64,000 nucleotides of DNA from Nitrososphaerota archaeon. GTDB taxonomy: Archaea; Thermoproteota; Nitrososphaeria_A; Caldarchaeales; Caldarchaeaceae. Every line of letters starts with the position of its first letter. Position 1 is the first letter of the stretch. A program made the position numbers and the translations under genes. A model generated the notes under the pieces. It had not been told where the DNA came from. It ran no database searches and saw only the letters and a list, made by a program, of their open reading frames with translations. Of this stretch, positions 16,642 to 47,490 are shown piece after piece. The DNA lies in assembly GCA_041641305.1 (NCBI GenBank), contig JBEPYN010000002.1:416001-480000 (forward strand). The letters are read 5' to 3'.

Positions 16642-16730
16642 CCTTACATCACTTCCTCATAAAAGATGTATTTAACCAGAGAAGGCCCTGAAAGTGCGGA
16701 CACCATTAACCAGTTATAAGCAACATTTCC

Positions 16731-16746
16731 TGTCAACATGTTGACA
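16731..16746. promoter_or_regulatory. perfect palindrome TGTCAACATGTTGACA upstream of parB
   Basis: Same motif as the 13.1-13.3 kb cluster. Confidence 0.7.
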
Positions 16747-16753
16747 CCCAGAA

Positions 16754-21658: not shown

Positions 21659-21989
21659 ACCTCAACCTCCTCGGTTCCCTTCTACTCCCACGTTTAGCCA
21701 ACGACAGGAACGAGACGATGAACACGGTTAGCGGCAGAGAGTATAGCAGCCACGACGGGTTCAGCGCGGCTGTGGCGAGGCTTGAGAAAAGCACCAAGGC
21801 GAAAGCTGTCTTAGCGGATATAAGCCCCTTAGGAGAGTCGTAGTCAGGTTCTCCGCCTGCGGCGCTACGGCCCCTCGGGCGAGGCGGGGCCACCGGCTCA
21901 CGGCCGCCTTGGCTCGCTAAGCTGTCGTAAAGCCCCTGCATAGATATGTAGTCCTCGATATAGTTGTCGTCCTCAGCCACTTCCACCAC
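21645..21989 (-). CDS. small membrane protein
   Basis: Acidic N-terminus plus two C-terminal TM helices; same layout as 27519..27836. Confidence 0.6.
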   Translation of the reverse strand: MVEVAEDDNYIEDYISMQGLYDSLASQGGREPVAPPRPRGRSAAGGEPDYDSPKGLISAKTAFALVLFSSLATAALNPSWLLYSLPLTVFIVSFLSLAKRGSRREPRRLRFVDD

Positions 21990-24288: not shown

Positions 24289-24725
24289 CTGACGCCCAGT
24301 GGAAACTCCCTCTTAACGGCCTCGTCGCCGACGTATACCTCGACCCTGAAGGTCGCGGATGGGTATGTGAATATCCTCCAAGAAGAGCTGGCCACTCCGT
24401 CTTCGCCGGTTACTAGTTCAACGCTCTGCAGAAGCTCTGCATACGTCACCCTTAGCCGAGTGTTCGCCAAAGGCCTGCACCTAGTATAGTCCATCGCGAC
24501 GGTACCGTTTGGAAGAGTTACCCAGCACTGTCCGCCGCTTCCGACAAGGTCCTCGACCACCATCACCCTGAACTCGTAGGGCCATAGGATGTGGGGCTGT
24601 TGCCTAGAGTCGTAGAACACTATGATACGCGTCGGGCTGGGCGCATCACCTTGGACGTCGCCGTGAACAATCAATGGAAAGACCGCGGCTAGGAGTATGA
24701 CCAGAGCCAGTTTAAGCAGCTTCAT
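24207..24725 (-). CDS. secreted/membrane-anchored protein
   Basis: Signal peptide plus C-terminal TM helix. Confidence 0.65.
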   Translation of the reverse strand: MKLLKLALVILLAAVFPLIVHGDVQGDAPSPTRIIVFYDSRQQPHILWPYEFRVMVVEDLVGSGGQCWVTLPNGTVAMDYTRCRPLANTRLRVTYAELLQSVELVTGEDGVASSSWRIFTYPSATFRVEVYVGDEAVKREFPLGVRWFTLASVAAFSVMLSSMIYAMRRGMW

Positions 24726-27522
24726 ACAGCATCTCCCTCCTGCTCATCCTCCTTCTCACAAGAGCTCTCTTGTCAGGCTCTATGCGGAAGAACAGGGGCC
24801 TCGGGTCGACGCTCCACTTGAGGAAGGCCTCGCCTGTCCCGAAGCCTTCCAGCCTTCTCCTCTCCTCGTCTGTCAGGTTAAGCAGCTTCTGGGCGTTCAG
24901 GGCCTCGCCCGGGTTACCGTAGCCGAAGGCAATCGTTGTAGAAACGAGGGCCGCCACGGTCGGGACACCTCTTCTCTTAGCCATGTCAGCTTCCTGAAGC
25001 AGGTCATCGAGCAGATGGGTTATCATGACGTAGCTTGTGCCGAACTTTCTCTCCTCCCTGAGATGAGTACCGAGAGGGACTTCGCCGGCTTTTCCAAGCA
25101 GGAACTTGTGGCCCTCGTCGATTATCACCATAAGCCTCACGCCCTCCTTGACCTCTTGGCTGAGCATGTAATCATGTATGTGCTCGAGAATGCTCCAAGT
25201 GATTAGCCTCTGCATGTCGTCGCTCATACGCACCTGCCCGCCGCCCGACTGGGCGCGGAAACTCACTATCACTACACCCCCCTCCACCAGCAAATCCTTC
25301 AGCAGCACATCGGTCCTATCGAGCGCGAAAGCGCCCTCCGCATAGGGCCTCAGCCTCCGCTCTAGGTCAAGCAGCAGCGTCACCGCGGCGTCGAGCTCAG
25401 GAGAGCCTCCCCGCGAGATAACCAGCTTCTCAGCCTCTCTTCTCCTCCACGCAACGTATGCATAGAGCTGGGCCATTGTGCATTTAGACAGGTTCTCATC
25501 CCTCCATGTGGAGGGGTCCGAGTCATCAACTCCGCCTATCCTCTTGTACATCAGCTTAAGCCCTTGGTAGAGTATGCTGGATTGGGTGGGCTGAAGCGGG
25601 ATAGCGTTGGGCAAAACCGCGTCCACGAACCTGCTTATCCTCTGCTCAGGGGCTAGGCCTGAGAGAAGCAACGGGTTGTATTTCTTGTTGCAGAGGTCTA
25701 TGACGGTGACCTTCAAGCCCATGGAGCTGAGCTCGTCAGCCTCGGCGGCGTATTCTCCGGCCGGGTCTATTATGATGACGGCGGGAGGCTTCCCCGTGCC
25801 AGAGTATTTGCTGAGGCCATCTATCCTGAAGAGCAGCGTCTTTATCAGGGTGGATTTGCCGGTGCCGGGAGAGCCTAGAACAAGCATATGCGGGTTATGA
25901 AGCATCGATGGGTTCCAGTACACAGGCCTGCCATACTCGTCTCTGCCGAGGTATACGCCGTCCTTGGGCATTATTGGCCGGCGCCTGAAAGCCAGCGGGC
26001 TGACGGCGACAAAGTCTCTCGTCAACGCTTTGACAACCGGTATCGGGTTGGGGTCGAAGATGCCTCTCCGCGGCTGAGGCAGGTACATGAACCTGTGGCA
26101 AAGAGCAGCTCCCCAGCCGTCCCCCACCTCCTTAGTGGAGAAGTTCATCGTGTCCAGAAGGCTACGCGCCTCGTGAACATGTTTATCCAACATGTCGAGC
26201 TCTTTCCAAGACATTGCGGCGCTTCTGACCCTCACTTCAACCACTATGCTTATCACGTAAGGTCTCTCACCATGGCTGATTCTCTCAGCCACGTTCATGC
26301 TGCGCCCGGCCTTGAGGTAGCCGGACACAGCACCGCCTACCTGTGCATCCATTCCATAGAGGTCGGCGCGCGCCATCGCCATCCTCATGACGTCGCCGGC
26401 CGACTGCGGAACAATGTGTAACGCTATCCTGAAGTCCTTGAGCGAGTATATCAGGCTGTTAAAGGTGGCGAGGTACATGGGAAGCCTCCTGTCTATGTCA
26501 CGCATCTCGAGGTCGCGGTTGTTGTTGCCCGTCACCGAGACATACCTCGACGCCACCCACTCGCCCCCCTCGCGCCTCAGCAGCACACCTTTCTCCAACA
26601 GCCTGTACTCCCCGTTGCCCAGAGACCAGTGCATATGGGTTAAGCCGGAGAAGCATAGCGGGCATGACGCCTTCTTCACCATCAACGCAGCCCTAACAGC
26701 AGCAACCACCCCAATCAAGCTGCTTAGAAACATGGTGAAACCTAGGGTGCCCAGCCCCACGCTGAAGAAGGTGGCCACGGCCGAGGCCGCCGACGCGGCT
26801 CCGAGGATTATGACATGCATTATGTTTGGCTTCAGCGTTACCCTGTCACCCATCACCGGCTTGTGGTTCATGTAGCTGCTGTCATCTATGAGCACCATGC
26901 CGATGCCTTCGAGGGTTGTAGCCAAGGTTTTCGCCGCGGTTTCGACGCTGTGTGCGGCCCCCTCCTCGTCGCCTTCAACAACCTCTGAATAGAGAATTAT
27001 GTAGGCATATTCTCCCTGCGGCGACCTGTCTATGACGAGCTTCGCCTCCACGTCAGATAACCCCTCAATGGCCTTGACCATCCTATCCAGCAGAAGCATC
27101 CGCTCATGCTCCGTCGTGGTCTCGAAGTTCTTCTGAATATCCGCTATCTTGAGCACTTTCACGGCATAGCCCCTGCTCCTAGACCTGTCCTCAAAAATCA
27201 GCGTCAGCTCCTCAGGCCGCCTAAGCCCGTCGATAAGCCTCACAGCAGGCTGGACCTTGATGCTCACAGGCAGCTCGGACGCAACCGCATGCCAGAACGC
27301 CGGAGACTTCGTGTAGCGTTTAAGGTAACACACCGCGGCCGGATAGGCCCTGCGCCAGACAAGCGACCCAAGCACCAGCGACGGGAAGAATATGGCTAGG
27401 TAGGGCGTATAAGGGGCCAGCGAAGGGCTGAAGGAGAAGACCGCCAGCGTCACTATTATCAAGCCGCCGAAGAACACGGGGCCGATGCCGAGAATCTTGG
27501 CGAGGATGCCCATCGCCTTCAC
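24712..27522 (-). CDS. VirB4-like ATPase of a conjugation/DNA-exchange apparatus
   Basis: GVYLGRD..GRPVYW, NPHMLVLGSPGTGKST, IIDPAGEY, IIDEGH, RKFG and GTGEA; N-terminal TM helices. Confidence 0.85.
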   Translation of the reverse strand: MKAMGILAKILGIGPVFFGGLIIVTLAVFSFSPSLAPYTPYLAIFFPSLVLGSLVWRRAYPAAVCYLKRYTKSPAFWHAVASELPVSIKVQPAVRLIDGLRRPEELTLIFEDRSRSRGYAVKVLKIADIQKNFETTTEHERMLLLDRMVKAIEGLSDVEAKLVIDRSPQGEYAYIILYSEVVEGDEEGAAHSVETAAKTLATTLEGIGMVLIDDSSYMNHKPVMGDRVTLKPNIMHVIILGAASAASAVATFFSVGLGTLGFTMFLSSLIGVVAAVRAALMVKKASCPLCFSGLTHMHWSLGNGEYRLLEKGVLLRREGGEWVASRYVSVTGNNNRDLEMRDIDRRLPMYLATFNSLIYSLKDFRIALHIVPQSAGDVMRMAMARADLYGMDAQVGGAVSGYLKAGRSMNVAERISHGERPYVISIVVEVRVRSAAMSWKELDMLDKHVHEARSLLDTMNFSTKEVGDGWGAALCHRFMYLPQPRRGIFDPNPIPVVKALTRDFVAVSPLAFRRRPIMPKDGVYLGRDEYGRPVYWNPSMLHNPHMLVLGSPGTGKSTLIKTLLFRIDGLSKYSGTGKPPAVIIIDPAGEYAAEADELSSMGLKVTVIDLCNKKYNPLLLSGLAPEQRISRFVDAVLPNAIPLQPTQSSILYQGLKLMYKRIGGVDDSDPSTWRDENLSKCTMAQLYAYVAWRRREAEKLVISRGGSPELDAAVTLLLDLERRLRPYAEGAFALDRTDVLLKDLLVEGGVVIVSFRAQSGGGQVRMSDDMQRLITWSILEHIHDYMLSQEVKEGVRLMVIIDEGHKFLLGKAGEVPLGTHLREERKFGTSYVMITHLLDDLLQEADMAKRRGVPTVAALVSTTIAFGYGNPGEALNAQKLLNLTDEERRRLEGFGTGEAFLKWSVDPRPLFFRIEPDKRALVRRRMSRREMLYEAA

Positions 27523-27836
27523 CTTCTCAGCCGCGCCACAATGACGATGAACAGGGTTGAGCCGGCCACGAGAGCACCCGGAATTAGCTGTCCGCTCAGG
27601 AGCAGCGCCCCGGAGAAAATGGTCCCTAAAATGATGAATTTATTGAGCTGAGGAGCAGGTGCGTTCCTCGTCCTCCTACCGGCGCCTCTTCTAAGTATGT
27701 CGACAGGCCTGCCATTTTCGTCCCTAACGTACTCGTCATATTCATCGGCCTCGGAGAAGTTTTCCCTAGGTAGCTCAGGAGCTGTGCTAGCCCTCTTCCT
27801 AACCCCAGACTTTAGTCTGAACTCTTCCTCTTCCAT
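27519..27836 (-). CDS. small membrane protein (VirB3-like position)
   Basis: 105 aa with C-terminal TM pair, directly upstream of the VirB4-like gene. Confidence 0.55.
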   Translation of the reverse strand: MEEEEFRLKSGVRKRASTAPELPRENFSEADEYDEYVRDENGRPVDILRRGAGRRTRNAPAPQLNKFIILGTIFSGALLLSGQLIPGALVAGSTLFIVIVARLRR

Positions 27837-30800
27837 TCATTTTCACCTCCATTTTTTCCAGACTCGGCCCCAGCCTGCCCCCATTCTGGAGGCATCTGGG
27901 ACTCAACCGTATCGCCCACATCATTCTCCTTTTTTCCAAAGTCTCCCCAACTCATGTGCTCCGAGACATCCTCTCTTCCCGCAGCCCACCACGGCACCTT
28001 GAACTCTCCATCTGATTCGGAGCCGACCCGTTCAACAAAAGAGGCGGCGTCCTCCCTCTTCCCCAGAGAATCGGCTACGCTGAAGAGCTCGTCCAGAGTC
28101 TTCGGGTCATCGGCCCCAGAGATGATTTTCTCCCGGAGGCTATCCATGTACTGCTGCTGGAGCTCGGACACTCCGGGGCCCGGCTGATAATCCGCTGGAG
28201 AGACGTCGTAGCCTTTCGCCGAAGCAGCATGGGCACGCGCACCCATCTCCTCCATCACCTTCATGAACTCGTCCAGCTCGTTCTTCGACACCTCATAGGT
28301 CCCCATGCTTGTCTCCACGACAATCCTGTCGCCGCCGTCCATGAGGTTGGTGAGCCTGAAGTCCGGGTCATACGGGTTGGCGACAATCCACATGTATTCC
28401 TCGAATCTTTCCTGGAACCTCTTGTAGTCCTCGGGGGTGCCGTAGGACCTGTGCATGTCGTAGGCATGCTTCACGTCGGAGGGGTCGCCGCCGTAGTCGT
28501 GCTGCCTTATCAGCGGCTGCTCAGCCGACCCCGCTGGATGGAGTATGCCTGTCCTGAACTCGGGCACATAGGCCGGCGTCACAAGAGGCTTCACACCCTC
28601 CGGCGAGAAGGGGTTGTTGTCGGCGGCGAGTGTGAAGGCGGCTGGAGCCCTTATCCTTCCGTCGAGCTGGTCCGAGACGTATCCGAAGAAGGCGCCGGCG
28701 CTCGCGTGGCCTGATGCTGACAGCCTCATACTCATCCAGCCAGCGGCCTTACCCACGGTCGGGGAGAGGATGCCCTCGATAAGGGCTGCGCCAACAACGT
28801 GTTTGCCGAAGTCGCTTCTCGCGAAGCTGTCAACCAAGGTAATCCTCTGCGACATCGTGGAGGGCTTCAGCATGTTTGCGAAGCCTTGTGCAACCTTCTC
28901 TGGACGCGCCTCAACAATCCTGCTCTGCTTAGCCCACCCGATGAGCAGGTCCGCCTTACGCGTAGCCTCTTCCAGCGAATAGCCCTTCATAGTCAGCCTC
29001 TCGGCGTAGGCGTTTCTCACGCTTTCGGCGAACTTCGGGTCGCTCCTGACCGCCGACATGGCGACGCGGACCGTGTAGCTCCTCGTCATGACGCCGAGGG
29101 CCAGCCTCTCGGCCCTCGCGACGATGCCGCCCCTGCCCTCAAGCTCCCGCCTCTTGTCCAGCATCCGCTCCATGATGCCTGAGAACCTTGTCCTCTCAGC
29201 GACCTTGTCCCATGTCTTTCTGTTCTTCTCCCTGGCCTCGGTGGCGGCTTTGAGGAGCTGGTTCTCCTGCCTCCTCTGCGCCCACCTCGCCAGCATATCG
29301 ACACGCGCCATCCTCCGCACGGCGCCGGTGAAGGTTGTCATGAACTTGGCCGCGTGGGTTATGTTGCCGACCTTCCCGACCACGTACTTCATCATCACGC
29401 TCTGGCCACCGACGAGCGACTGGAAGCTGTCTATTATGATGGCTAGTAGGCCTATGGCGAGGCCTATCGCGAACGACTGCCCAATGAGCTCTGACAGGGG
29501 CTTGAGTATCCTCACGCTGCCGACATCGGTCATGAGGATGGGGAGAACGGATATCTGGATGTCACTGCCCGCATAGGTGCCCTTAGCATACTTGTATAGG
29601 ATGGTGGAGACGGATTTCGCAAGCGGTATGCTTGTGTTGAATATTGTGGCGTTGTTCTCCCAGTGCTCTTCCCTATACCTGAGGAGCTCCGCGTTTATTC
29701 GCCTTGTCGCCTCGTGGCTCGGCCCGTCTCTGTACAGCCCTTGCCTGAAGTTCTGGTACCTAGCCCACTCGCCTCTAAAATTGTCCACGGAAATGCCTAG
29801 AATATTGTCGGGCACGTAGCCGCCTGAGGCAAGCTCACGCGTATACTCCCTGTCCTCGTCAAACTTATGCCACTCGACGGGGGGCAGGTAAGGCATGGAC
29901 TCCGAGGCCGTGAAGATGACCCTGAAGCTGTAGCTGAGGCTGTCGGGGACCTCTGGATAACCATCATAACTGTCCCTGATTATTGTCTGGTTAGCGGTTA
30001 CGAAGACTTTCTTCTGCTGGGTTGGGGCATTCAGCTCAAGAGGCTCGTTGCGGTCGATTGCTTCCACGCTCTGAGGCAGAACGTAGGGGCCGTAGCCGTC
30101 TATGAAGCCGGCTGCCTGTATCTCTGCGAAGCTCGAGTCCATGACGGTGTGGTTCCAAGAGGGTGGGTTTGATGTAAACGGTCTGAACTCGTAACTCCAT
30201 GACGGTGTTCCAAGGCGTCTCTCGCAGATGTCTGTGCCGTTGACAGGGCCTCCATGTATCGGGTCTATGTGCCAGCAGACATCGTAGTCATCCATGTTGA
30301 GGTAGACGAAGTAGACGCTCTTGTTTCCGCTATAGTCTCCTCTTGTGTAGTAGTGCCATCTCCAGCAGGTTTCAACGGTTGAGGAGTTTCCGTCGGTCTC
30401 GCATGTGTAGGTCTCGTTTACCTGCCATCTGGTCTCCCTGACCTTGGGAAGGGTTATACCATATATGTTCAGGTCCTCTTTCTTGGTGCCCCAAGGCTGC
30501 TCCGTGAACCAGACGAAGGTTGTGTTCCTGTTGGCGGCGACCATCCACAGGCTCGTCTCGTTATAGAGGTTGGAGGCTTTCCAGAAGCTTTCCCACCTCT
30601 CTTTCCAAATCAGGTACGGGTTGCAGGAGATTGAGCCATCGTCCCATCCGCCGAAGAAGAACTCCCGGTCAGGGTCAGTTCCGGTGCAGGCCATGGCGCT
30701 AGGGTCAGGGTCCTCGGGAACCTTGTGAACTGTTATGTTGCGTGGAGAAGTGTCGTAGAGGGTCACCCACATGTTCAGGAACCAGACGCGCCTCGCGTAG

Positions 30801-31798
30801 GTTCCGTTAATCAAGGACATGCGGTAGCCCTCATCATAGGCGTTGTAGTATCCTCCGCCACCTGTGTCAAATATGGTCTTCTGAGGAGTCTTCAAAACAT
30901 CTCTCATTATTTCTATTATTTGTTCGCAGGTCAGGTTGCCTCCGCGGGGCAGGTTAGCGCATACCTTGTCCCTGTCTATCTCGGGAGGCTGCGTAAACTC
31001 AGCAATGAGAAACGGGTACCACAACGTGTCGTTCTCCCTGTCATAAACCGTGTACCTCACGCCTCCCTCCATTTCGCCAACGGCCCTGCTGGCTATGCTA
31101 AGCTTCTGGATATCAGCGGCCTCCATGATGCTCTGTTCCACATAGCCCGGCGGAGGAGATGCCGCCACTATCGCGACCGGGAGGGCTAGAGTCAAAGCCG
31201 CTCCCAGCACCATCATTGTCTTCCCCGCTGTTCTCGCGAAAGGAATAGCGAAGAGCGCCGCTCCTATAATAAAGAGGGTTGGCGCGACGCCTTTAGCCAA
31301 GCCCACGAAGGCGACCACACCCTCCATGAAGACAACAACCCCCGACAACAGCTTGGCAATGAATATGAGCAGGTTGAAGACGGCGCCGAAGATGAAGCTC
31401 GCTATCGCGGACAGAAGTATCCCCACGCCCGAGAGCCAAGCCGGCAGAAGAGCAAGCATCACGATGGATTGCAACGTGCCGAGACTCATCGCCGCAAGGT
31501 TCACCGCCTTGAGCCACTCGAACGCCATGTCCCTGCTCGCATGCGCCGACGCAATGGCGTCGTCGAAGGTGGCCGTCAAGGGCAGGCTAACTCCCATGCT
31601 CTGCAGGTAACCTGCTAACACAGGCTTGAGCAGCGCGATGCTTCCGACGATAGACAGGATGGCAGCCGTTGACCAGCTATGCATCATCGCTGTCCACCCC
31701 CATCTCCTGAACTGGGGGAGCGGGAGGCTGAAGAGAACTAAGCCGGCTCCGTATACGAGGGCCGCAATCCCGAAGGCAATCTCAGCTTCGTTAGCCAT
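27812..31798 (-). CDS. very large CedA/TedA/VirB6-like membrane protein
   Basis: N-terminal YGAGLVLFSLPLP..RRWG multi-TM region similar to 31805..32659, a large Cys-containing soluble region with many NxT/S sites, a further TM helix and a charged tail. Confidence 0.6.
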   Translation of the reverse strand: MANEAEIAFGIAALVYGAGLVLFSLPLPQFRRWGWTAMMHSWSTAAILSIVGSIALLKPVLAGYLQSMGVSLPLTATFDDAIASAHASRDMAFEWLKAVNLAAMSLGTLQSIVMLALLPAWLSGVGILLSAIASFIFGAVFNLLIFIAKLLSGVVVFMEGVVAFVGLAKGVAPTLFIIGAALFAIPFARTAGKTMMVLGAALTLALPVAIVAASPPPGYVEQSIMEAADIQKLSIASRAVGEMEGGVRYTVYDRENDTLWYPFLIAEFTQPPEIDRDKVCANLPRGGNLTCEQIIEIMRDVLKTPQKTIFDTGGGGYYNAYDEGYRMSLINGTYARRVWFLNMWVTLYDTSPRNITVHKVPEDPDPSAMACTGTDPDREFFFGGWDDGSISCNPYLIWKERWESFWKASNLYNETSLWMVAANRNTTFVWFTEQPWGTKKEDLNIYGITLPKVRETRWQVNETYTCETDGNSSTVETCWRWHYYTRGDYSGNKSVYFVYLNMDDYDVCWHIDPIHGGPVNGTDICERRLGTPSWSYEFRPFTSNPPSWNHTVMDSSFAEIQAAGFIDGYGPYVLPQSVEAIDRNEPLELNAPTQQKKVFVTANQTIIRDSYDGYPEVPDSLSYSFRVIFTASESMPYLPPVEWHKFDEDREYTRELASGGYVPDNILGISVDNFRGEWARYQNFRQGLYRDGPSHEATRRINAELLRYREEHWENNATIFNTSIPLAKSVSTILYKYAKGTYAGSDIQISVLPILMTDVGSVRILKPLSELIGQSFAIGLAIGLLAIIIDSFQSLVGGQSVMMKYVVGKVGNITHAAKFMTTFTGAVRRMARVDMLARWAQRRQENQLLKAATEAREKNRKTWDKVAERTRFSGIMERMLDKRRELEGRGGIVARAERLALGVMTRSYTVRVAMSAVRSDPKFAESVRNAYAERLTMKGYSLEEATRKADLLIGWAKQSRIVEARPEKVAQGFANMLKPSTMSQRITLVDSFARSDFGKHVVGAALIEGILSPTVGKAAGWMSMRLSASGHASAGAFFGYVSDQLDGRIRAPAAFTLAADNNPFSPEGVKPLVTPAYVPEFRTGILHPAGSAEQPLIRQHDYGGDPSDVKHAYDMHRSYGTPEDYKRFQERFEEYMWIVANPYDPDFRLTNLMDGGDRIVVETSMGTYEVSKNELDEFMKVMEEMGARAHAASAKGYDVSPADYQPGPGVSELQQQYMDSLREKIISGADDPKTLDELFSVADSLGKREDAASFVERVGSESDGEFKVPWWAAGREDVSEHMSWGDFGKKENDVGDTVESQMPPEWGQAGAESGKNGGENEWKRKSSD

Positions 31799-31804
31799 TT
31801 CTCA

Positions 31805-32659
31805 TCACCCGAAACCAAGCGAGGCTGCTACCCCGCCTATACCCTTGCTCAGGGCAGAGGCAGCCGCCATCACAATACCCCATCCAGCGAGCGAGCCCAA
31901 GGCGAACCTCCACATCCGCATGATGGTGTTGTCCTGAGCGTTAAGCAGCCAGCCCACGAGGTCGAAGACATTTTGAAAGGTTCTACCGAGGTCTGTGCTG
32001 GCGACATCGTCAAGACTGCAGGGCTTTGCCTCCCCAGCGCTGCAAGCTATCAGGCCTATGGCCGGTATGTAGGGGCCGGCGGCTGCGAAGGCCAAAGACG
32101 CCGCCAGAAGCCAGCCGCCTATACCCTTCAGCTTCCCACCGGGAACCGCTAAAAGCGCCACACCTATCGGCGCAAGGGCGACCGCTAAGCTTCCGAAAAC
32201 GGTCAGGAACACCATCAGAGTGAAGCCTGTGATTAACGTGACAGAGAGCGCGAGCCCCGGCAGAGAGGCGATTACGCTAAAGATGTTGGCTATCGCCGGC
32301 CCCACTATAGGTATCAGAGCAGTACCCATTCCTATGCCCGTAATGATGGCCAAAATGGTGAAAGCCTTCATACCAAGCCCCATGTATATGTCAGGTAGTG
32401 AAGCACAGGGCGTCCTCTCCGCAGAAATAGCTTGGGACACCATGCCGACTATGCCGTTGAAGGAGTTAGCCGTCCCGAGGATAGCTATGAAGCCGGCTGA
32501 GACGAGGGCATAGCTGATAAGCTGTCCACCCCAAGAACTTCCATGACCTCCGGGTAGGGGCAGCTTGTGTAGGGCGAGTCCAATCCCATAGCCTATGGCT
32601 ATAAGCGACCAAGCAACAGCCGCCCAGGCTCCAAGCCCGGAGTATTCGCAGGCTATCAC
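31805..32659 (-). CDS. CedA/TedA/VirB6-like polytopic membrane protein
   Basis: YGIGLALHKLPLP...WGGQLI pattern, several TM helices and C-terminal ALSKGIGG, as in crenarchaeal CedA-type proteins. Confidence 0.6.
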   Translation of the reverse strand: MIACEYSGLGAWAAVAWSLIAIGYGIGLALHKLPLPGGHGSSWGGQLISYALVSAGFIAILGTANSFNGIVGMVSQAISAERTPCASLPDIYMGLGMKAFTILAIITGIGMGTALIPIVGPAIANIFSVIASLPGLALSVTLITGFTLMVFLTVFGSLAVALAPIGVALLAVPGGKLKGIGGWLLAASLAFAAAGPYIPAIGLIACSAGEAKPCSLDDVASTDLGRTFQNVFDLVGWLLNAQDNTIMRMWRFALGSLAGWGIVMAAASALSKGIGGVAASLGFG

Positions 32660-32731
32660 GGATAACCACCTCTAACCATAAACCATATTTTGAAAAAATA
32701 TGGAGGGGGTTGGCCCCAACATGTTCACCTA

Positions 32732-33175
32732 CTAGAATCGGGGCACCTCCCATGGGCTGCTCGGCTGCGGCGGCGTGGTACCAAAGCCAGCGCCTGTCGT
32801 GGCCACGGTTGCGGCAAAGTAGAGCAGGTAGACGCCTAGGGCTGCCAGCCCGGCGAGTATCAGGGCGCTGTCAAGAAGCTGGCCGCCGGCGTCCTTGGTT
32901 CTATGGCTCCCCGTCGGCAGGAACTTTAATGCTAGACCTGAGCCCAGCAACGCAGCCGCTATCAGGAGCAGGAGCTGCCCAAACCCTGACACCGCGCCCT
33001 GAAACGTGTTGGCTATCGCCGCAGGCCCTCCTCCTTGCCCCGTCTGTTGAGCCATTGCAGCAAGCAGCAGGTGCGCGTTGGCAGCCGCTAGGCTTATGGT
33101 CGTGGTCGCGAGCCGCAGCCTACCGCTTCTCAGCCCTTTTACGAGGTTTGACCCTTTCCGGGTGTGGTGCTTCAT
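32732..33175 (-). CDS. VirB2/CedA1/TedC-like pilin precursor
   Basis: Leader followed by two hydrophobic helices separated by a short charged loop (KFLPTGSHRTKDAGGQLL); first gene of the transfer operon. Confidence 0.6.
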   Translation of the reverse strand: MKHHTRKGSNLVKGLRSGRLRLATTTISLAAANAHLLLAAMAQQTGQGGGPAAIANTFQGAVSGFGQLLLLIAAALLGSGLALKFLPTGSHRTKDAGGQLLDSALILAGLAALGVYLLYFAATVATTGAGFGTTPPQPSSPWEVPRF

Positions 33176-33196
33176 GGCTTTCTCGAGACCATCCTC

Positions 33197-33588
33197 AAAT
33201 ACGATAATACTTAAGCTTTGGCTGAATCTGAACACTTTTGGTCGGCCACCTAGGTCGGCCAGTTTGGTCGGCCACTCTGGTCGGCCAAAGCTTATAAAGG
33301 AGCATTTTTCATATAACCCCGTTATGGCCGCTTCTTAATATAGCTATGTTCGCATTTTTCGCACTTGGCTCTATAAGCCTTTTATCACCATTTCTTTACT
33401 TTTTAATACTTTTTCAGGAATTTTTTGGTTATCTGGTATTTTTTTGTGTGCAAATTACCTTCCGCATTATTGATAAGCTTATCGGTATGGTTTTTCATGT
33501 TGGTCGGCCACATACTGTATATATTTTTGCTGGTCGGCCAGTTTGGTCGGCCACTCTGGTCGGCCAAAGCTTAAGTATTATCGTGTTT
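33197..33588. repeat. iteron array and AT-rich core bounded by 29-bp inverted repeats (putative origin / divergent promoter region)
   Basis: GGTCGGCCA at 33240, 33253, 33266, 33279, 33502, 33532, 33545 and 33558; inverted repeats 33197-33225 and 33560-33588 (27/29 match), each containing AAAGCTTAAGTA. Confidence 0.85.
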
Positions 33589-36480: not shown

Positions 36481-37944
36481 ATGTGGGCTAGAGTTTTTGT
36501 GACACTGATAATCATCTTTGGCTTCGTAGGGTACGCTTGGTATGCAGCCATGTTAGCCTCTCAGAGATTGTTTGAACGTGGAATCATCAAAGAATCACCT
36601 ATGCCAACAATAGATGTCAAAACAATAACAACACAGGTGGCTCAGTACACAGGCATCGCTGTAACCCTGCTAATGATAGCCATTGTGGTAAAGAGGGTCG
36701 TTGAATCGGGTAGACTTCTGGGCGTCATTAAAGTCTCCGACCTTCAGAGGCATCTACTACTGCTTGGACCAACCGGTAGCGGCAAAACAAACACTGCTAA
36801 ACAGGCGATTGCCTTAGCCGTACGTCGTGGTGTCAGGGTAATCGTCATCGACTGGAAAGCCCTCTTCTCTCCGCCAGCGTTTTTCACGTCTCCCCAGCTC
36901 AGTTCCGCCGCATAGGGTTCGCGTGGAGCTTCTGGCGGAGCTGGGAGGGCCCAGAAAGGCGAGTACGTTAACTTCATCAAGGGAGCCTCCGTCGTCAGGA
37001 AACTCAACGTGTGGGACAACGGTGGTAGGTCGCCGAAGGAATGCGCTGTCCTCGCTGTCGAGACATTGAGAGAAATTACACGCGATATCGCAGATGTTTC
37101 ATCCGCCAGCGCAGCCCTTCTCCTGAGGGAGCTTGTAAAGCTCTACGGGAGAGGGGTGCCGAAGACATCCGACGTAGTTTCAGCTCTTGAGAAGTTCATA
37201 AACACCGCAATGGCGGAGCGGAGACTTGCCGAGGCGAATATGGCTTCTGCATTGCTTAGAAGGATGATGTGGCTCCAGATAGACGAGGAGAGGCCTGCGA
37301 AGAACATCATAGGCTCTGACAGGGTTGTTGTCTACGACTTATCAGAGCTCGGAAGCGTCTACCTGAAAACCATCTACAGCCTCAGCATCCTTTCAAAGAC
37401 CTACTACGGGGCCCTTAGACAGGGACAGTCCCAGAAACTAGAGACGCTGGTGATTGCAGAAGAGTGCCAAAACTACATACGTGGTAGGCGTTTCGACGAG
37501 CCTCCGTCGATTGGTGAGAGAATGGCTAACGAGCTGAGGGCCTACGGCGTCGGCATGGTCCTGATAAGCCCGGACCCTGTCCAGATACCCTGGCACCTCG
37601 CCAGAGACGTTGCAGCAGTAATATCCATAGGACTTCAGGCGATACCCGACAGCGTCAAGGACCTGTTGAGAACAATTGACCCCAAACAGGCGAAGAGAGT
37701 AATGATGGGTAAGAAGGCCTACGTCTATTACAACGGCAAACTGAAGACAGCCTCTCCGCCCAAGCCTCCAAAAGAAATAGAACTAAACGTTGACGTAAAA
37801 GAGGTGATTGAAGAGACTAAGCCTGAGGAGACTGTCGAGACTACTGCTACACAACCAGACAACTCTGGGGCAGAGGAGAGTGTTCAGACAATGCCGATAG
37901 AGCAGAAGGAGCCTTTGGAGGAGGCCCAGAGAGGCGTGAATTGA
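36481..37944 (+). CDS. membrane-anchored HerA/VirB4-like ATPase, spliced: join(36481..36857,36957..37944), 454 aa
   Basis: Walker A LLGPTGSGKT in exon 1; removing the BHB intron gives VIVIDWKGEY; Walker B region VIAEECQN and LRAYGVGMVLIS in exon 2. Confidence 0.85.
36858..36956 (+). other. BHB-type mRNA intron 1 (99 nt)
   Basis: Central helix CUGG/CCAG, bulges AAA/AAA, long inner stem; contains an in-frame TAG. Confidence 0.8.
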
Positions 37945-37990
37945 TAGAGAGCCGGGGAAACCTCCTCTAAGGCTTGAAGAAGATGAAGAG

Positions 37991-38755
37991 ATGGTCGATG
38001 AAGACGAAGAGCAGGTGACAGAGGCCCCGCATGGGCGCATACCCCCACGGGAGGGAGTCCCGCCAAGATGATGTGGTGGTTGTGAGCGCCCCGGGAAAGC
38101 CGAACCACAGACACAACAAGAAAAAGCAGAAGAGGAGCAGGCAGATGAAACCACTGGTGGATTCCCCCTCCACGGCCACATGGTCGTGGAGGAGGCTTTC
38201 GCTGACGAGTCGGTTCTACGATGTGTTAGATGTGGGGCTTCGGCCTCGCTGACAGAGGCTACACAACTCATGGAGAAGCCTTGCCAAGAACCTCGAATGA
38301 CGCAGGATAACCTTCAGACCCGGTGCGGATGTGGACGGCCGGCGACAAAGCTTATGCCGTCATACGACCCGATAACCATGACGTTTAAAGACCTCTGCCT
38401 GTGCGACGGCTGTGCCAACGACTACCTCAACATCCTCAGGAGGTCAGGCCCAGCCCTAGGCAAGATGAGGGGGAGAATACCTGCGAACGGCTATTGGTTC
38501 AACCTTTACAACACCGTCTTCCAGGAGCTGGCTGGGACATACCCGTGCCCAGCCTGCGACCAGTTCTTCGACGACCTGTATTCCGCGGTCAAACACTTCG
38601 GCGAAAAACACATCGACAAGACAAAGACTCCAGAGGAGGTTGTCATAGACGGGGTTCCCGCCCTTAGGACATGGCAATACATATGGTGTACAAAATGTCT
38701 GAGGTTCTTCGAGAACGAGCGACATTTCCGTTCACATCTCCGAGACCATAGGTGA
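37991..38755 (+). CDS. acidic N-terminus plus multiple Zn-finger protein, spliced: join(37991..38031,38098..38755), 232 aa (possible ATT start at 37940)
   Basis: CxxC pairs and C2H2-like CPAC...H....H and CTKC...H...H; the frame is open across the intron except for the intron TGA. Confidence 0.7.
38032..38097 (+). other. BHB-type mRNA intron 2 (66 nt)
   Basis: GGC-CCCG-CAU-GGGCGC pairs with GCGCCC-CGGG-AAA-GCC, a strict helix-bulge-helix-bulge-helix; contains an in-frame TGA. Confidence 0.8.
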
Positions 38756-39120
38756 AGCAGATGAAGTTCAGGGGAAAAATTTACAGGGATGGGGGAAGGC
38801 TGAAGCTGGTCTTTGACAAGCCCCTCCCGCGTGGGAGGGTGACGCTGCTGCTGACGAGGGTGGACGGAAAGGCTATGGAGTTGAAGTTCGATACAATGAT
38901 AACCAACAACGACCCCTATCGATTAAAGTGTCGGTTGCCACCGTTCCCGGAGCTGAGGCCCGGGGCGGTGGTCGAAGGAATAATCGAAGACGAGCTTAGA
39001 TGCCGCTGGTGCGGAGCCAAGTGCTCCGCACTCATCAACAACCTCTGCGACCATTGTTTCGAGGTATTCAACAGCCCCTACAAACCCCCTCTGGGAGAGG
39101 GTTGGGGAAGGCTGACGTAG
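38752..39120 (+). CDS. hypothetical protein with C-terminal Zn finger
   Basis: CRWC...CDHC; GTGA overlap with the upstream gene. Confidence 0.65.
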   Translation: MKQMKFRGKIYRDGGRLKLVFDKPLPRGRVTLLLTRVDGKAMELKFDTMITNNDPYRLKCRLPPFPELRPGAVVEGIIEDELRCRWCGAKCSALINNLCDHCFEVFNSPYKPPLGEGWGRLT

Positions 39121-41287: not shown

Positions 41288-43088
41288 ATGGTCAGGGTAG
41301 TGGAGCTTCGGGAGGAGACTGAGCTTCTAGAAAAACTCAAGAATCGCTTTCCACACACTAGTCTACGTAGATATCAGGCCGACATCGCTAATAGGGTCTA
41401 CGAGAGCCTTTCCAACGGCTCTAGCATTCTTCTGGAGGGCCCTACGGGGCTGGGGAAGAGGCTATGAGGAGACTGTTTATGGGGGGTGGTTGGCTGGCTG
41501 GCGTCTCCGAGCCTCCTATACAGCCCCTGTATGGGCCGCGGTGAGCGCCTACGCGGAGGAGAAAGGTCTGAGGGTTCTATGGCTCACCCGGACGGCGTCC
41601 CAAGTAGCTCACATCGCCAGCGAGATAGGATGCATGCCCATCTACGGCCGCCGGCTTCTCTGTATCCATGAGACGGTTAGCAAGGTTGAGCAGAGACGGT
41701 TCAACGCGGCTTGTAGAGTTGTACGACTATCCGGACGTTGCTCATACTATCCCGGAAGGCCTAGCCAAATAAAGGCGAAGACTGTTGGAGAGATTAAAGA
41801 TGCCGGTAGGAAGTCGGTCACATGTCCCTACGAGCTTCAGCTGACATCGATGCCATACTCGACGTCGCTGGTCGCCACCCATAAACAGTTGTCTGTAGTT
41901 TCCTGGCTTTTGGCAAAATGGCGTTGGACCCGCGAGCGAACCATCTTGGTGCTCGACGAGTTCCAGAACATCTTGAAGACTGTTCTCGACCTCTCAAAAG
42001 ACGCCATAAGCCTGGCAACGCTCCACAAGGCCGCCGCAGAGGCAGCAAGGTATGGCTTCAGGGATATTTCCAGCAGTCTTTCAGAAGCTTATCAAAGATA
42101 CAAGGCGGTTGACGTTGACGAGGCTGAGGTAGAAAACCTACTGCCCAGCTTCGAAGAGCTCTTCGAGGCGGGGCAGGAGATACAGGCTAGGAAACTTGAG
42201 GAGAATGTTGTACCCGCCAGCTATGTGTTGAGCGTCGCAGACTTTAAGGCTGCTCTCGGCCAGCAGAAGCCCCTCCTAGTCAGGGAGGGTGAACGGGTTT
42301 GGCTGGAGGCGCTAGCAGACCCACGCGAGGAGCTTGAAAAGATTCTCGAAGGCTGGAGAACGGTCATAGCTATGACGGCCACGATGGATGCGGAACTCGT
42401 TGAACGCATGGCTTCAACCCAAGTGACGCTGTTGCGAGCAGGGTGGCCCTTCGACGATAATCTGAAGGCATACATTGTCAGCGGCCTTACGACGAGATAC
42501 AGGGACAGGGATGTGGAGCTCTATGAAGATGTCCGATGGCTTATAGAACAATCTCATGGAATGAGGACTCTCGTCTTCCTACCCAGCTATGAATTTGCTT
42601 CAATGATTCAGAAGAGGCTTAGCGACGCTATCGCCGAGCAACGGGGGATGACGCAGGAACAGGTGGAAGCCACGGCCGCTGAATTCGCGGAGGGTGGAAA
42701 AACGCTTTTAGCCGTCTTCGGTGGAAGGCTGGCAGAGGGCATCAACCTCCAAGCCGACTTGGTTATGCTGGTGGGCATACCATTCGCGAAACCATCACCG
42801 CGAACAAAGAAGCTCGAGGACAAGCTTGAGAATGTCTTTGGGAGCAGTGACCTTTCCCGGCTACATGGACTAGTTTTACCGGCCCTCTTTGCCGCCGTGC
42901 AGGCCGCCGGTAGGGCTGTCAGAGGCCCCAATGATAGGGCTCTGGTCCTGCTCGTCGACGACAGATACCGCCGTTTGACAAAACACTTGCCCAGATGGTT
43001 CAGAGACTTGGTCTCAGATAAGCCGGTCAAGCTCACAGATGTTCCCATTCTATTGGATGAGTGGTTGTCATGGATGAAGAGCGTTTGA
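41288..43088 (+). CDS. XPD/Rad3/DinG-family FeS helicase, spliced: join(41288..41458,41520..43088), 579 aa
   Basis: Q motif RRYQ; Walker A GPTGLGKT is rebuilt only after intron removal; FeS cysteines (LC...C...C...CPY), DEFQN, TAT, EGIN, GIPF and QAAGRAVR. Confidence 0.9.
41459..41519 (+). other. BHB-type mRNA intron 3 (61 nt) containing a kink-turn
   Basis: GGGGCUG-GGGA-AGA-GGC pairs with GCC-UCCU-AUA-CAGCCCC; causes a frameshift and contains a TGA. Confidence 0.9.
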
Positions 43089-44512
43089 GACACGTTCTTG
43101 AACGCATCCGCAGACAGAACATCAACTACGTGAAGCTCAGAGGACTTGTCAGCCGATTCATGACTCTCAACCCCGAGGCAGACCCAGAAGCAATAGATTG
43201 GACAGCCGTCTACGATGACTCCCTAAGCTACGACGAACTCGTCGAAGCATTTGAAAAAGAGTATCCCATGTACCGGTGGCGTGAGACAGCTCCCGCAGAT
43301 GACAAACAAATCGAGGACATGCTGGTGAACCATATCCTCAACCAGGTCGAGGACCTTACAGAAGAGTCTCTCAAGTCGCTCGTCAATGCCTTGGAGGAGC
43401 GGCTGGAGGCTCTACGGCAGGCCGAAACCCCGGCATCTCCGACGGAGCAACAACCCGAACATACACAGATGCAACATCCTCAGCACCAACCGCCGACTAT
43501 GACTGAAAACATACAACAGCCAGCGCCACAGCCGAAGGTAACCCTCAAGCTTCTCGCATCCTACCCCTTCCTAGCGGAGGCTAGGGAGGTGGTTAGGGGC
43601 GTGAGCTTCGAGGGTTTACCCAGGGCGGTATACAAAAGAGCCCGGGAGAGGCTAATGGAGGCTCTCGAACGGGGAGAGCTGGGGGTTGTTCCCCGGCTCG
43701 ATGAACCGTTCGTGGAGCTTCTCTCCTTTCCCGTGGCGAAGGCCGTTGTCCACACAATCGACGACGACTGGCTGAAAAGGCGATGGGCCCTCGCAGAGTC
43801 AGCGAGGGTCGAGAGGCTTCTACTGAAGGAGAATGCGGATGTCTCAGAATGGCTCCTCTCCCGGCTACTTGAGGTCAGGCGAGAGGGAGAGGAGTATGCG
43901 CTGAGGTTCACTGATTACCTAAAGCTTGCTGAAGGCCTTACCACCGATATCTCATGGAAGCTAGTAAACCAAAAACTGCATCGAGGCTGGGTCTTCATAA
44001 CAAAGACTCGTCTCATACGACTCATCAGACAAAAACTCTACCAACTTCTCTATAACAGCTTCCAGCAGACGCCCAAACTGACAAAAATACCTCAACAAAT
44101 CGCCGAAATGGTCGCCGACATAACCGAGGAGCTCCAAAAAATCAAAGCCCGGGCAGGACGGGTCACACCCGTCAAAGGCGCAATACCGCCCTGTATGAAG
44201 ACGATTAGCGATAGGCTGGCGGACGCCAGCCACACAGAGAACTTCGTATACGCCGCCTACTTGGTCAATACGGGATACAGCATCGAGGAAATCGTTGATG
44301 TCTTTAGGAAGAGAGCTGACTTCGACGAGAGGATAGCACGGTATCAGATAGAGCATATAGCGGGGCTGAGGGGGAGCCGTGTGAAATACCGGCCACCTTC
44401 ATGCTCCCGCATGCGGGAACTCGGACTATGCATCGAGAACGGAAGACTATGCCCACCGAATATCCACAACCCACTACAATACCGACCTAGACAACAGCGA
44501 CAACCCACCTAA
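43061..44512 (+). CDS. priL: DNA primase large subunit (PriL) with N-terminal extension
   Basis: YPFL..A, RRWALAES, WKLVNQ.L..GWV, PPCM, DFDERIARYQIEHIAG and YRPPSC...GLC....C. Confidence 0.85.
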   Translation: MVVMDEERLRHVLERIRRQNINYVKLRGLVSRFMTLNPEADPEAIDWTAVYDDSLSYDELVEAFEKEYPMYRWRETAPADDKQIEDMLVNHILNQVEDLTEESLKSLVNALEERLEALRQAETPASPTEQQPEHTQMQHPQHQPPTMTENIQQPAPQPKVTLKLLASYPFLAEAREVVRGVSFEGLPRAVYKRARERLMEALERGELGVVPRLDEPFVELLSFPVAKAVVHTIDDDWLKRRWALAESARVERLLLKENADVSEWLLSRLLEVRREGEEYALRFTDYLKLAEGLTTDISWKLVNQKLHRGWVFITKTRLIRLIRQKLYQLLYNSFQQTPKLTKIPQQIAEMVADITEELQKIKARAGRVTPVKGAIPPCMKTISDRLADASHTENFVYAAYLVNTGYSIEEIVDVFRKRADFDERIARYQIEHIAGLRGSRVKYRPPSCSRMRELGLCIENGRLCPPNIHNPLQYRPRQQRQPT

Positions 44513-44667
44513 ACACCCCCTATTTTTTCTTTCCCCGATAGGAGGCCCTTTCCGCCGCTCTCCGGCGGGAGGGGTTCCTCCTGTCGGGGAGAGGTGGACT
44601 CAGGCCTCCCGGGAAAGCCATGACATTAAGTCATGGTACCGGACCCGGCCACCGGGGTAAAGGTGGC

Positions 44668-45066: not shown

Positions 45067-45970
45067 ATTCATAGACCCCACCATTCTGAAAGGGTGGTGG
45101 GGTTCCGAGGAATACCAGAGGCTGTTATCCTTCGAGCCGGAAAATGCAGGTGACTACTATCGGTTACCATTCGCCAAATACAACGAGCTCTTTCCGTTCA
45201 TCAAAGTCAAGATTGAGCACCCTGCAGTGATGAACCCATACTTGGCGATTTTCCTTTGGCGGCGTTACGTAAAACCAAATGATGTAATAATCGACCCTAT
45301 GGCTGGGATAGGGGGTACACCCGATATGTAGGGGCCCAGCTTTATCCCAGCCATAGCCTGCAGATTGACCAATGATAACCACTTAATCCTCAACGATATT
45401 GAGTCGACTTACGCCAGACTCTCTGAGGAGCTTCTTTCGGAGATGCTGGTCGTTACTAATCACAGCACCCTGCTGGACGTCTACAACGTAAACGCTGCCT
45501 CTCTTTATGAACTTCTTAGACCAAGAGGACTTGCTGGAGGCGTACGGAGGAGGGTTATTATTACCTCTCCTCCGTATGGCCTCCTCAGGCCCTGTGATAG
45601 CTTCAGCCCGAGGTTTGGCAGACTGACGGTAACTTCCGCCGGTAACCTTAGCGTGATAACCGGTAAACACTTTAGGGCGGCTTGGCTGGGCGTGCTGACT
45701 TCGATGTATCTCTGTCTCAACCAGTTCCATAGAAACCGTGACTTGGCTGTGATTGTCCTCAAAAACTTCAAGAATAACAATGTGGAAAAGGCTGTTGGAA
45801 AAAACCTCGTCAATTTAACGGTTGAACTCGCGGAGTTCGTTGGATTCAAACATCTCGAGACGCTGAAGTTCAAGATTTCAGGCAGCCACTTCGCCAGATA
45901 CCACGACATCAAGCAACATGTCCATGACCTCTGGCACGAATATGCGCTGGTCTTCCGCAAGGTGGTGTAG
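45059..45970 (+). CDS. amino (N4-C/N6-A) DNA methyltransferase, spliced: join(45059..45318,45340..45970), 296 aa
   Basis: HPAVM, motif I IIDPMAGIGGTF (rebuilt by splicing), NDIE, motif IV ITSPPY and HEYALVFRK. Confidence 0.85.
45319..45339 (+). other. BHB-type mRNA intron 4 (21 nt)
   Basis: 14-bp perfect exon-exon stem CUAUGGCUGGGAUA/UAUCCCAGCCAUAG plus two G-U pairs, helix GGGU/GCCC, bulges ACA/AGC; contains an in-frame TAG. Confidence 0.9.
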
Positions 45971-46819
45971 ATGAGGATTTTCGCTGATGTTCATAGGAAA
46001 AAGGATGACAGCGGCTACCGCATCACATATACAACTGACGGCGAAGTCTTTAAACACGTTGATTCTCCGATGGACATCCCCGCGCAGGCAGGAGACGAGG
46101 TATTCGTTGACACTATACCGATAATCCACACCGACGCATTCATAGAGCTACTGAGGAGAGGTGTAGAGGTCTATTATCTACGAAGACTCTCACTTATTGA
46201 AAAGACAAGACAGAGACTGGGGATACCGAAGTCAGCCAAAAATGACGTAAAAATTCTGATGAACATTGAGAAGAAATGGTTCAAGAGAGTTGACGAGGAC
46301 TTCTTGAGCATGCGTCAGATTATTTCGGCGTTTAGGAGATTGGATAGAGACAAACAGAGGTTGGAGAACCAGTCTAAGGACGTGCCGGAGATTACAAAGG
46401 AAAGCTTCAGGAGGCTCATAGACCATACAGAGGAGGAGAAGTTGGTAATAGCCAAACCAATAGTAGAAGAAGCAGAGAAGAGGCTTTCGTTATTTAGAGT
46501 AGTAGCGCAGGAGCTGGGTGTTGCAGACGATAATCATTCGATGGGAAGAGAGGCACTGGCCGAACTACTGACATACGTAGACTTCAGCAAATCCTTCAGA
46601 AAAGTCAGAGAGTATCTCGGACTCTTCAGAAACCCGAAGACCAAAAACATGAGATACAGCCACAGTTCTAGGAAGGCGTTGAACCGTCTAACAATGTCGC
46701 TGACGGGCAGAGAGCCAAAAGCAGAAGACGAGGAAACAATAGCTTTCAAGATATGGCTGACGTTCCGACGGGAAAACCAAAAGAGGCTGGCGGGCATACC
46801 GGCCCAACAACAGGGATAA
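45971..46819 (+). CDS. short IS110-related protein (RuvC-like DEDD domain, coiled coil, Nop/Tnp-like C-terminus)
   Basis: IFADVH (D6), VFVDT (D47), KSAKND in place of KTDxxD, LRQ-like MRQ...R.L......LEN coiled coil, and FRKVREYLGL. No serine loop seen after YLGL. Confidence 0.65.
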   Translation: MRIFADVHRKKDDSGYRITYTTDGEVFKHVDSPMDIPAQAGDEVFVDTIPIIHTDAFIELLRRGVEVYYLRRLSLIEKTRQRLGIPKSAKNDVKILMNIEKKWFKRVDEDFLSMRQIISAFRRLDRDKQRLENQSKDVPEITKESFRRLIDHTEEEKLVIAKPIVEEAEKRLSLFRVVAQELGVADDNHSMGREALAELLTYVDFSKSFRKVREYLGLFRNPKTKNMRYSHSSRKALNRLTMSLTGREPKAEDEETIAFKIWLTFRRENQKRLAGIPAQQQG

Positions 46820-46910
46820 AACCCATAGGCCGGTATGTCATGTTATAAAACGAACTGGCTCTCTTGCCAGTTATGTCCCAACCTTTAACGACCGGCCTCT
46901 TTTTGGGTTT
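46819..46910 (+). ncRNA. putative dual-guide RNA (bridge-RNA/tigRNA-like loop)
   Basis: Stem AGGCCGGT/ACCGGCCT encloses ATGTC-N9-AACG, hairpin AACTGGC/GCCAGTT, then a second ATGTC-N9-AACG; lies directly after the stop codon of the IS110-like gene. Confidence 0.6.
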
Positions 46911-47017
46911 CCTAGGTGTTGTTTGGTGGTTGCCTGCCAGCCAACCATCCCCCTATTTTTCCCTTCTTTTTGTGATGTTTTTTGTTTATATCATGGGTGT
47001 GGGGTGTTTTCGGGGGT

Positions 47018-47460
47018 ATGGTCTCTGAGCTTGGTTATGGTGGGTTTGTTGCGGAGGTGTTGAGTGGGCTTGGTGTGGGGTTGGGTGATGAGGTTGAGGT
47101 TGTGAGAAATGGGCTGCGGCTCCGCGGGTTTGTGATTGCGCGTTACGAGTATGGGGCGCCTGATGTTCTGGTTTTGAAGCTTTCGAACGGCTACAACATA
47201 GGTGTGCGCATCGATGCCTCTACACAGATACGTAAGCTCTCCTCAGCCGTCGCGCCATCTTTCAACCCACCTCCACCCGCCCAGCCTCGGGAAAACCTGC
47301 CCCGCGTCATGATTGCCAACACAGGCGGCACCATAGCCAGCAGAATAGACTACAGGACAGGAGGAGTTAAACCCACTCTCACTGCATCGGACCTCGTCAG
47401 CATAGTTCCCGAAATCGCGGAGAAAGCAAACGTCTCAACCGAGATTCTGATGCAGGTTGT
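47018..47460 (+). pseudogene. gatD: truncated Glu-tRNA(Gln) amidotransferase subunit D (N-terminal part)
   Basis: VLKLSNGYNIGV and TGGTIASRIDYRTGGV...DL...VPEI; similarity stops at about 47458. Confidence 0.8.
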
Positions 47461-47490
47461 GAGTATGTTTATAACATCATCCAACACAGC

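Follow-up and report, generated by a model that had tools for sequence, protein, structure and literature searches.

Probable host-dependent splicing of pre-mRNA introns in a mobile element of a Caldarchaeales archaeon

RESULTS

We analyzed a window of 64,000 nucleotides from the genome of a hot-spring Caldarchaeales archaeon (G000); homologues carry the name Ca. Caldarchaeum at NCBI. The plus strand of the window carries a CedD-like ATPase gene made of four exons and three introns. Exon 1 (36481 to 36857) encodes N-terminal hydrophobic segments and the Walker A motif (GPTGSGKT) and ends within the Lys codon of DWK; its frame is open from 36436, and the ATG at 36481 agrees with the starts of homologues. 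Intron 1 (36858 to 36956; 99 nt) is a long hairpin with an in-frame TAG at 36913 to 36915. Exon 2 (36957 to 37931) supplies GEY, the remainder of the ATPase domain, and the beginning of an acidic linker. A 28-nt intron containing an apparent stop codon (37932 to 37959) follows, then the 72-nt exon 3 (37960 to 38031), which encodes acidic linker, and a 66-nt intron with a strict BHB (38032 to 38097). Exon 4 (38098 to 38755) encodes a Cys/His-rich, Zn-binding C-terminal domain. When the three introns are removed, 36481 to 38755 encodes 693 amino acids with membrane segments, ATPase, acidic linker, and Cys/His-rich tail. The gene does not stop at 37944: the 28-nt removal, together with the insert called intron 2 in a reading made earlier without any searches (the sequence-only reading), joins the Zn-binding ORF to the ATPase.

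An intact homologue of the ATPase found its best match in the CedD family of the HerA/FtsK superfamily (NCBIfam NF053655; E value, 1.7e-25) and reached 89.7 bits against an equivalog cutoff of 600. Judged by these matches, the protein is predicted to work like CedD without being a CedD equivalog member. It had been called HerA/VirB4-like and proved to be nearer to CedD than to VirB4. The divergent neighboring operon also has CedA/CedE-like and CedB-like genes. The protein differs from CedD in its N-terminal membrane segments, acidic linker, Zn-binding tail, and location in an accessory element. An intact paralog had been cited for its motif IIDPAGEY; the motif is present, but the paralog protein is only remotely related.

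In two relatives (L010 and L011), a single frame covers the ATPase and continues into the first Cys module. The linker of relatives contains strict BHB introns of 64 to 190 nt in 13 of 17 loci. In 11 of these 13, intron length modulo 3 equals the frame offset between the ATPase and the Zn domain, and the remaining two stop further upstream. A search by Zn domain for long natural ATPase-Zn fusions found none, which is weak evidence. We also found that the central helix of the 28-nt linker intron is degenerate in this strain (two purine mismatches); its counterpart in relatives L098, L102, and L005 has the perfect helix CCCG/CGGG.

At intron 1, the 5' arm of the BHB (36852 to 36858) comprises CTGG (36852 to 36855) and the bulge AAA (36856 to 36858), with the cut after 36857. 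The 3' arm (36951 to 36957) comprises the pairing CCAG (36951 to 36954) and a second bulge AAA (36955 to 36957), with the cut after 36956. Removing the intron joins two ORFs in the same frame through IVIDWKGEY. The minimum-energy fold of 36838 to 36975 has −58.2 kcal/mol (z, −3.63), was equaled by none of 200 shuffles, and includes both the central helix and the long inner stem. The exon-side helix is shifted by five bases, with UCGUC (36842 to 36846) pairing with GGCGA (36958 to 36962), so that the 3' bulge sits within a 5x3 loop and the motif is a relaxed BHB. The sequence-only reading had placed the helix, bulges, insert, and TAG correctly; the long inner stem that it drew is in the fold, and its relaxed BHB is borne out by the offset exon helix. 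The intron is flanked by a 5-nt direct repeat, GAAAG, at 36855 to 36859 and 36954 to 36958, and six cut placements would therefore give the identical spliced product. Its sequence occurs once in the host genome. An Rfam search gave no match over intron 1 to any family at E values up to 1, comparison with the host tRNA introns showed no likeness in sequence, and the ribozyme core of a group I or group II intron is absent from this single 99-nt hairpin.

We found that 119 of the 120 best protein homologues are uninterrupted through WKGEY, the remaining one having an in-frame insert here, and that the alignment columns holding D, W, K, G, E, and Y show no variation. The restored frame and this conservation match the earlier expectation that splicing gives DWKGEY. 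Homologues encoded as two genes at DWK would have refuted an intron; instead, they are single continuous frames through DWKGEY. Likewise, 37 of 40 related metagenome loci (L035 to L073 plus L085) are uninterrupted at the site. All 12 short N-terminal homologues depart from the family sequence directly after DWK.

The DNA behind these short homologues, from related Ca. Caldarchaeum elements, has inserts at the same base, with lengths of 79, 82, 83, 99, 114, 117, and 123 nt and in all three frames. Each begins with CUGG-AAA and ends with CCAG or CCGG plus a purine bulge. They belong to two unrelated sequence types, 42 to 50% alike between types and with different closing stems; terminal stems are invariant within one type, and the two types are not alignable, so no covariation count was obtained. 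Most contain a stop codon or a frameshift. In two relatives, the insert (114 or 123 nt) keeps the frame and is free of stops; one of the two is annotated by NCBI as a whole protein (P0004). Relatives have retained the BHB but not the 5-nt repeat. The 35 hits from a DNA pattern search of genome_contigs were confined to records that are bacterial or unassigned, and we took them as chance; a search of viral contigs found no relatives of the ATPase.

When a tree was built from the ATPase core, copies with the intron grouped together on a single branch of moderate support (88/86). An intron-less sister, L098, which is 90% identical to the host-genome copy, is nested inside it. Two changes are required: the intron was gained once and precisely lost once, or it was gained twice. 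Among intron-bearing copies, dN/dS was 0.05 to 0.28 (pairs with unsaturated dS), and both exons are under purifying selection. This indicates that the gene is alive in intron-bearing lineages. One intron-bearing copy (L007, G004:C36) is frameshifted elsewhere, so some copies decay. Separately, L021 (G037:C141) has a broken ATPase gene, in which an unrelated ORF stands in place of the 5' part.

The region is present in two metatranscriptome runs. In run X1, available as assembled contigs, an 857-nt contig (depth, 13.6) matches 36954 to 37793 with zero differences and opens with the last 17 nt of exon 1, which makes it the spliced junction. A second contig has a matching loose end across this junction. 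A third joins 36953 to 36855, a step back by 99 that represents the head-to-tail circle of intron 1 (short side, 61 letters). The junction and circle strings are identical to those predicted, so the junction that the sequence-only reading had proposed to look for is present in RNA-library contigs, together with the circular intron. The exact cut base is ambiguous by 5 nt for intron 1 and by 0 to 1 nt for neighboring introns.

Four further removals in X1, of 28, 66, 28, and 61 nt, lie at the positions given by the BHB rule and without such a repeat. A single contig lacks both linker introns (37932 to 37959 and 38032 to 38097), and the X1 strain may differ from the window strain inside the 28-nt one. 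Two of the four introns, the 61-nt one in the helicase gene (see below) and, as a variant, the 66-nt one, were also found as circles. In X3, from a separate study, the 14 raw reads, including those that cross the 61-nt circle, are all on one strand, consistent with RNA of the plus strand; most mapped X3 reads fall on this helicase intron. The data suggest that its circle is stable. For a variant of the helicase intron (41482 to 41518) in X1 and X3, the depth of the circle was 28, above that of the flanking mRNA contigs.

The RNA evidence for intron 1 consists of assembled contigs from one run, unstranded and without read counts, and DNA carry-over is possible. Among the X2 pieces listed, none spans the intron 1 junction, and X3 and X4 have zero reads there. 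A 5-nt repeat beside a strong hairpin is a setting in which reverse transcriptase can skip. The insert is present in DNA of G000, L035, and L036 (the latter two are near-identical assemblies), and no DNA run was matched to the RNA sample. Among the fetched sequences, the closest intact protein has 82% identity.

We scanned the 1.66-Mb genome on both strands for BHBs and retained 42 of 1,847 candidates after an energy filter. Intron 1 ranked second, and the first and third were other inserts of the same element, which places the three best within 9 kb. Five independent sites among the 42 hits lie on the plus strand between 34.3 and 47 kb of the window. This stretch makes up 0.4% of the sequence scanned, and the expected number of sites there is about 0.16. 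A loose BHB pattern scan of the window gave hundreds of chance matches and was useless without the energy filter.

With three introns in the ATPase gene, the element has five or six within 9 kb. The next ORF (38752 onward) has a strict 28-nt BHB intron at its 3' end (39082 to 39109; CCCU/GGGG, bulges ACA and AAG), which is removed in an RNA contig; a 26-nt register also fits the motif and was rejected because the contig shows 28 nt. The 61-nt intron (41459 to 41519), whose skipped and circular forms were described above, lies between Lys and Thr of Walker A in an XPD/Rad3-like helicase gene (about 41288 to 43088) and is present in 11 of 22 loci. No intron was found in the PriL-like primase large-subunit gene (43061 to 44512). 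A strict 21-nt BHB insert with an in-frame TAG (45319 to 45339), the top BHB genome-wide, interrupts a methyltransferase-like motif that reads DPMAGIGGT after removal. No spliced read was found for it, and coverage there is low.

Near its right end, the element carries an IS110-related gene (45971 to 46819), with related copies elsewhere in the genome and in relatives; its protein has no solved-structure or Pfam match. A strict 97-nt BHB (46819 to 46915), outside the read-mapped stretch, encloses the stem-loop after this gene and is kept in all copies examined. Strict BHBs of 82 to 103 nt surround this stem-loop also at C1:515901 (−), C1:440009 (−), and C2:519180 (+) of G000 and in L100, L101, L103, L104, and L044. 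A putative IS110-related guide RNA may be cut out and circularized by EndA at these sites.

The operon of ATPase, XPD-like helicase, and PriL-like primase has differing flanks between genomes and occurs in a minority of relatives. L035 is 99% identical to the window from 34314 onward and at most 83% to the left. The IS110-related gene closes the element near 46980, with short relatives lying elsewhere in G000 and, in large number, in G009. No integrase was found in the element, the exact ends of which are unmapped. An X1 contig carries 39875 to 39915 between copies of the host CRISPR repeat, marking a protospacer; this spacer is absent from the 85 spacers extracted from G000, none of which matches any element locus. 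We call the element mobile because of its patchy distribution, changing flanks, and this spacer. Left of the intron-rich operon and divergent from it, on the minus strand, lies a Ced-like operon (13360 to 33235) with CedA/CedE-like genes, two CedB/HerA-like ATPases, a Hel308-like helicase, ParB, and a RadA-like protein. A Ced-like operon is found to the left in this locus and four others, and other elements have defense-type genes in its place. The genome-wide scan found no strong BHB in it.

The host genome encodes two EndA proteins of about 180 amino acids each. The catalytic subunit is closest to EndA of Aeropyrum pernix (E value, 1e-53), and K-P-R of the Crenarchaea-specific loop (CSL) is aligned. 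A K-P-R-type loop has been tied to the cutting of relaxed motifs (PMC5829648, PMC12397907). The sequence-only reading had asked whether the host EndA is of a broad-specificity type; with its nearest relative an (alpha-beta)2 enzyme and the loop kept, it is predicted to be CSL-type (alpha-beta)2 and able to cut relaxed motifs. The host also has an RtcB ligase gene. RtcB lies in a 975-aa frame (C1:535991-538729; L095, L096) whose match has a gap of about 460 aa, probably an intein. In the host cbf5 gene, the catalytic Asp codon is predicted to be split by a 14-nt BHB insert (C1:76821-76834; L097), at the position given for the cbf5 intron in PMC2738675; in the papers covered, that intron is listed for Crenarchaeota only. 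If the prediction holds, the host needs mRNA splicing anyway.

DISCUSSION

We observed a stable BHB-containing fold, a restored frame, conservation of the interrupted motif, and spliced and circular forms among RNA-library contigs, and we consider it very likely that the 99-nt insert is a true archaeal BHB-type pre-mRNA intron. In our model, the element operon would be transcribed and the intron ends would form a 4-bp helix between two AAA bulges, as in the computed fold. The broad-specificity (alpha-beta)2 EndA of the host would cut each bulge behind its second base; RtcB would then join the exons and close the intron into a circle. The products are present in RNA contigs; the two enzymes are inferred as agents, without cleavage data. 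Splicing would take out the stop codon and rebuild the invariant DWKGEY strand behind Walker A, and two more cuts in the linker would yield a membrane-anchored CedD-like ATPase with a Zn-binding tail. That this protein translocates DNA is likewise an inference, and no protein product has been shown. Without host splicing, this copy would make no ATPase. We suggest that intron 1 arose in a single Caldarchaeum branch of this element family, followed by at least one precise loss, or else arose twice; its interior drifts freely while its ends stay folded.

That nothing is spliced, and that the gene yields two separate proteins or is read through at the stop codon, is virtually excluded. The two relatives with stop-free, in-frame inserts, including the annotated P0004, could be accommodated in this way, but most inserts have a stop or a frameshift, a split at DWK would part Walker A from Walker B, and spliced RNA was seen. 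A MITE-like hairpin insertion with GAAAG as its 5-bp target duplication would have killed the gene, and the joined contig would then come from an insert-free DNA allele or from skipping by reverse transcriptase. The direct repeat and long inverted repeat are what such an insertion would have, the element includes an IS110-related gene, and RNA libraries can contain DNA. We nevertheless find this explanation highly improbable: the sequence has one genome copy and occurs in relatives at this site alone; relatives keep the BHB rather than the repeat; the stem begins 4 nt in from the 3' repeat; and both exons are under purifying selection. Moreover, the near-identical L035 and L036 carry the insert, the closest fetched intact protein is only 82% identical, and the neighboring inserts, which have no repeat, are removed and circularized at BHB positions.

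Granted that these are introns, why they are there is less certain. The most likely reading, in which our confidence is evenly balanced, is that they are tolerated passengers that accumulate because the host enzyme cuts relaxed motifs, their function being unproven; dependence on host EndA/RtcB would then most likely be a consequence. We favor passengers because the sites are patchy and the interiors drift. A selected regulatory gate, which differs from this reading in purpose only, would allow transfer and replication proteins to be made only at high host EndA/RtcB activity or only in hosts with broad-specificity EndA. Introns in essential motifs (DWKGEY, Walker A, the methyltransferase motif), at least one linker intron in most relatives, and the concentration of BHBs in the element fit a gate, but the patchiness (half of the helicase loci, and no intron 1 in L098) does not, and without expression data by condition we hold the gate to be possible and doubtful. 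The choice of conserved motifs would also be explained if the introns had shrunk from mobile BHB introns in which homing endonucleases were formerly encoded, an origin raised for cbf5 by Yokobori et al. (PMC2738675). The host has LAGLIDADG-family genes elsewhere; however, the loci examined have no insert longer than 190 nt and no endonuclease ORF at three sites, and inserts at separate sites resemble neither each other nor other DNA of the genome, which leaves this origin unlikely. Finally, inserts in conserved motifs could break protospacers and aid escape from host CRISPR, as the element spacer between host-type repeats in X1 might hint. This is very unlikely, since that spacer is not at an intron site and none of the 85 spacers extracted from G000 matches an element locus. 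Gate, homing remnants, and CRISPR escape thus have less support than passengers and remain possible.

Intron 1 behaves on all testable features like an archaeal BHB intron, and the nearest known case is the cbf5 pre-mRNA intron of Desulfurococcales and Sulfolobales (Watanabe 2002; Yokobori 2009, PMC2738675). Both have a relaxed BHB in a coding region, a cut between the second and third bulge bases, and a hetero-oligomeric EndA; both break a conserved motif, vary in their interior, and are gained or lost among relatives. In contrast to the single short intron of a housekeeping gene, we describe a mobile element of a Caldarchaeales host, in whose family structured introns reach 190 nt. The BHB intron of HVO_1309 in Haloferax volcanii (PMC7714728) is likewise an mRNA substrate of EndA, but it lies in the untranslated leader and leaves the reading frame unbroken. 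The putative 12-bp introns that Peng et al. proposed in protein genes of a virus of archaea (cited in PMC2738675) are also inserts in coding genes of a mobile element; as far as PMC2738675 describes them, they are in frame and their splicing is undemonstrated, whereas ours carry stops or frameshifts and have spliced and circular products. With tRNA and rRNA BHB introns (PMC12558985, PMC5829648), intron 1 shares the motif, the cut rule, and a circular excised product; here, however, the interrupted RNA is an mRNA and the intron has no sequence likeness to host tRNA introns. We found no report on these elements in the literature covered, which excluded most subscription papers.

We conclude that this mobile element, rich in introns, very probably depends on its host for pre-mRNA splicing. 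In the papers found, cbf5 alone among archaeal genes is credited with a coding-region intron that is spliced (PMC7714728, PMC2738675), and our data add RNA-level evidence for another. One archaeal protein would come from four exons, in an operon with five or six introns. New relative to the papers found are the mobile-element setting, the presence of several introns in one gene, introns that are both long and structured, and RNA evidence that includes circles. Because gene callers annotate intron-bearing genes as fragments, such elements look dead though they are not. Related elements are many and differ at several sites in whether they have an intron, and one sister shows an apparently precise loss, so that intron gain and loss become testable by comparison; the intron 1 precursor is a ready substrate for EndA assays.

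More tentatively, there may be a Caldarchaeales element family that has handed control of transfer, replication, and transposition to the host tRNA-splicing machinery, with genes built of exons and multiple BHB introns and with the IS110-related guide RNA also released at a BHB. If true, a prokaryote would be using the splicing of multi-intron mRNA for regulation.

Two minor observations concern the right part of the element. Between the primase gene and the next ORF lies a very stable, BHB-like hairpin of 76 nt (44540 to 44615); its segment 44559 to 44590 is common to X1 and X2 contigs of depth about 280 and is possibly an abundant element RNA or a repeat. After the right end, a partial gatD copy (46985 to 47463) has a second copy, 87% identical, at 748 kb of contig C1, and in G009 a gatD piece adjoins an IS110-related gene; a target duplication is possible.
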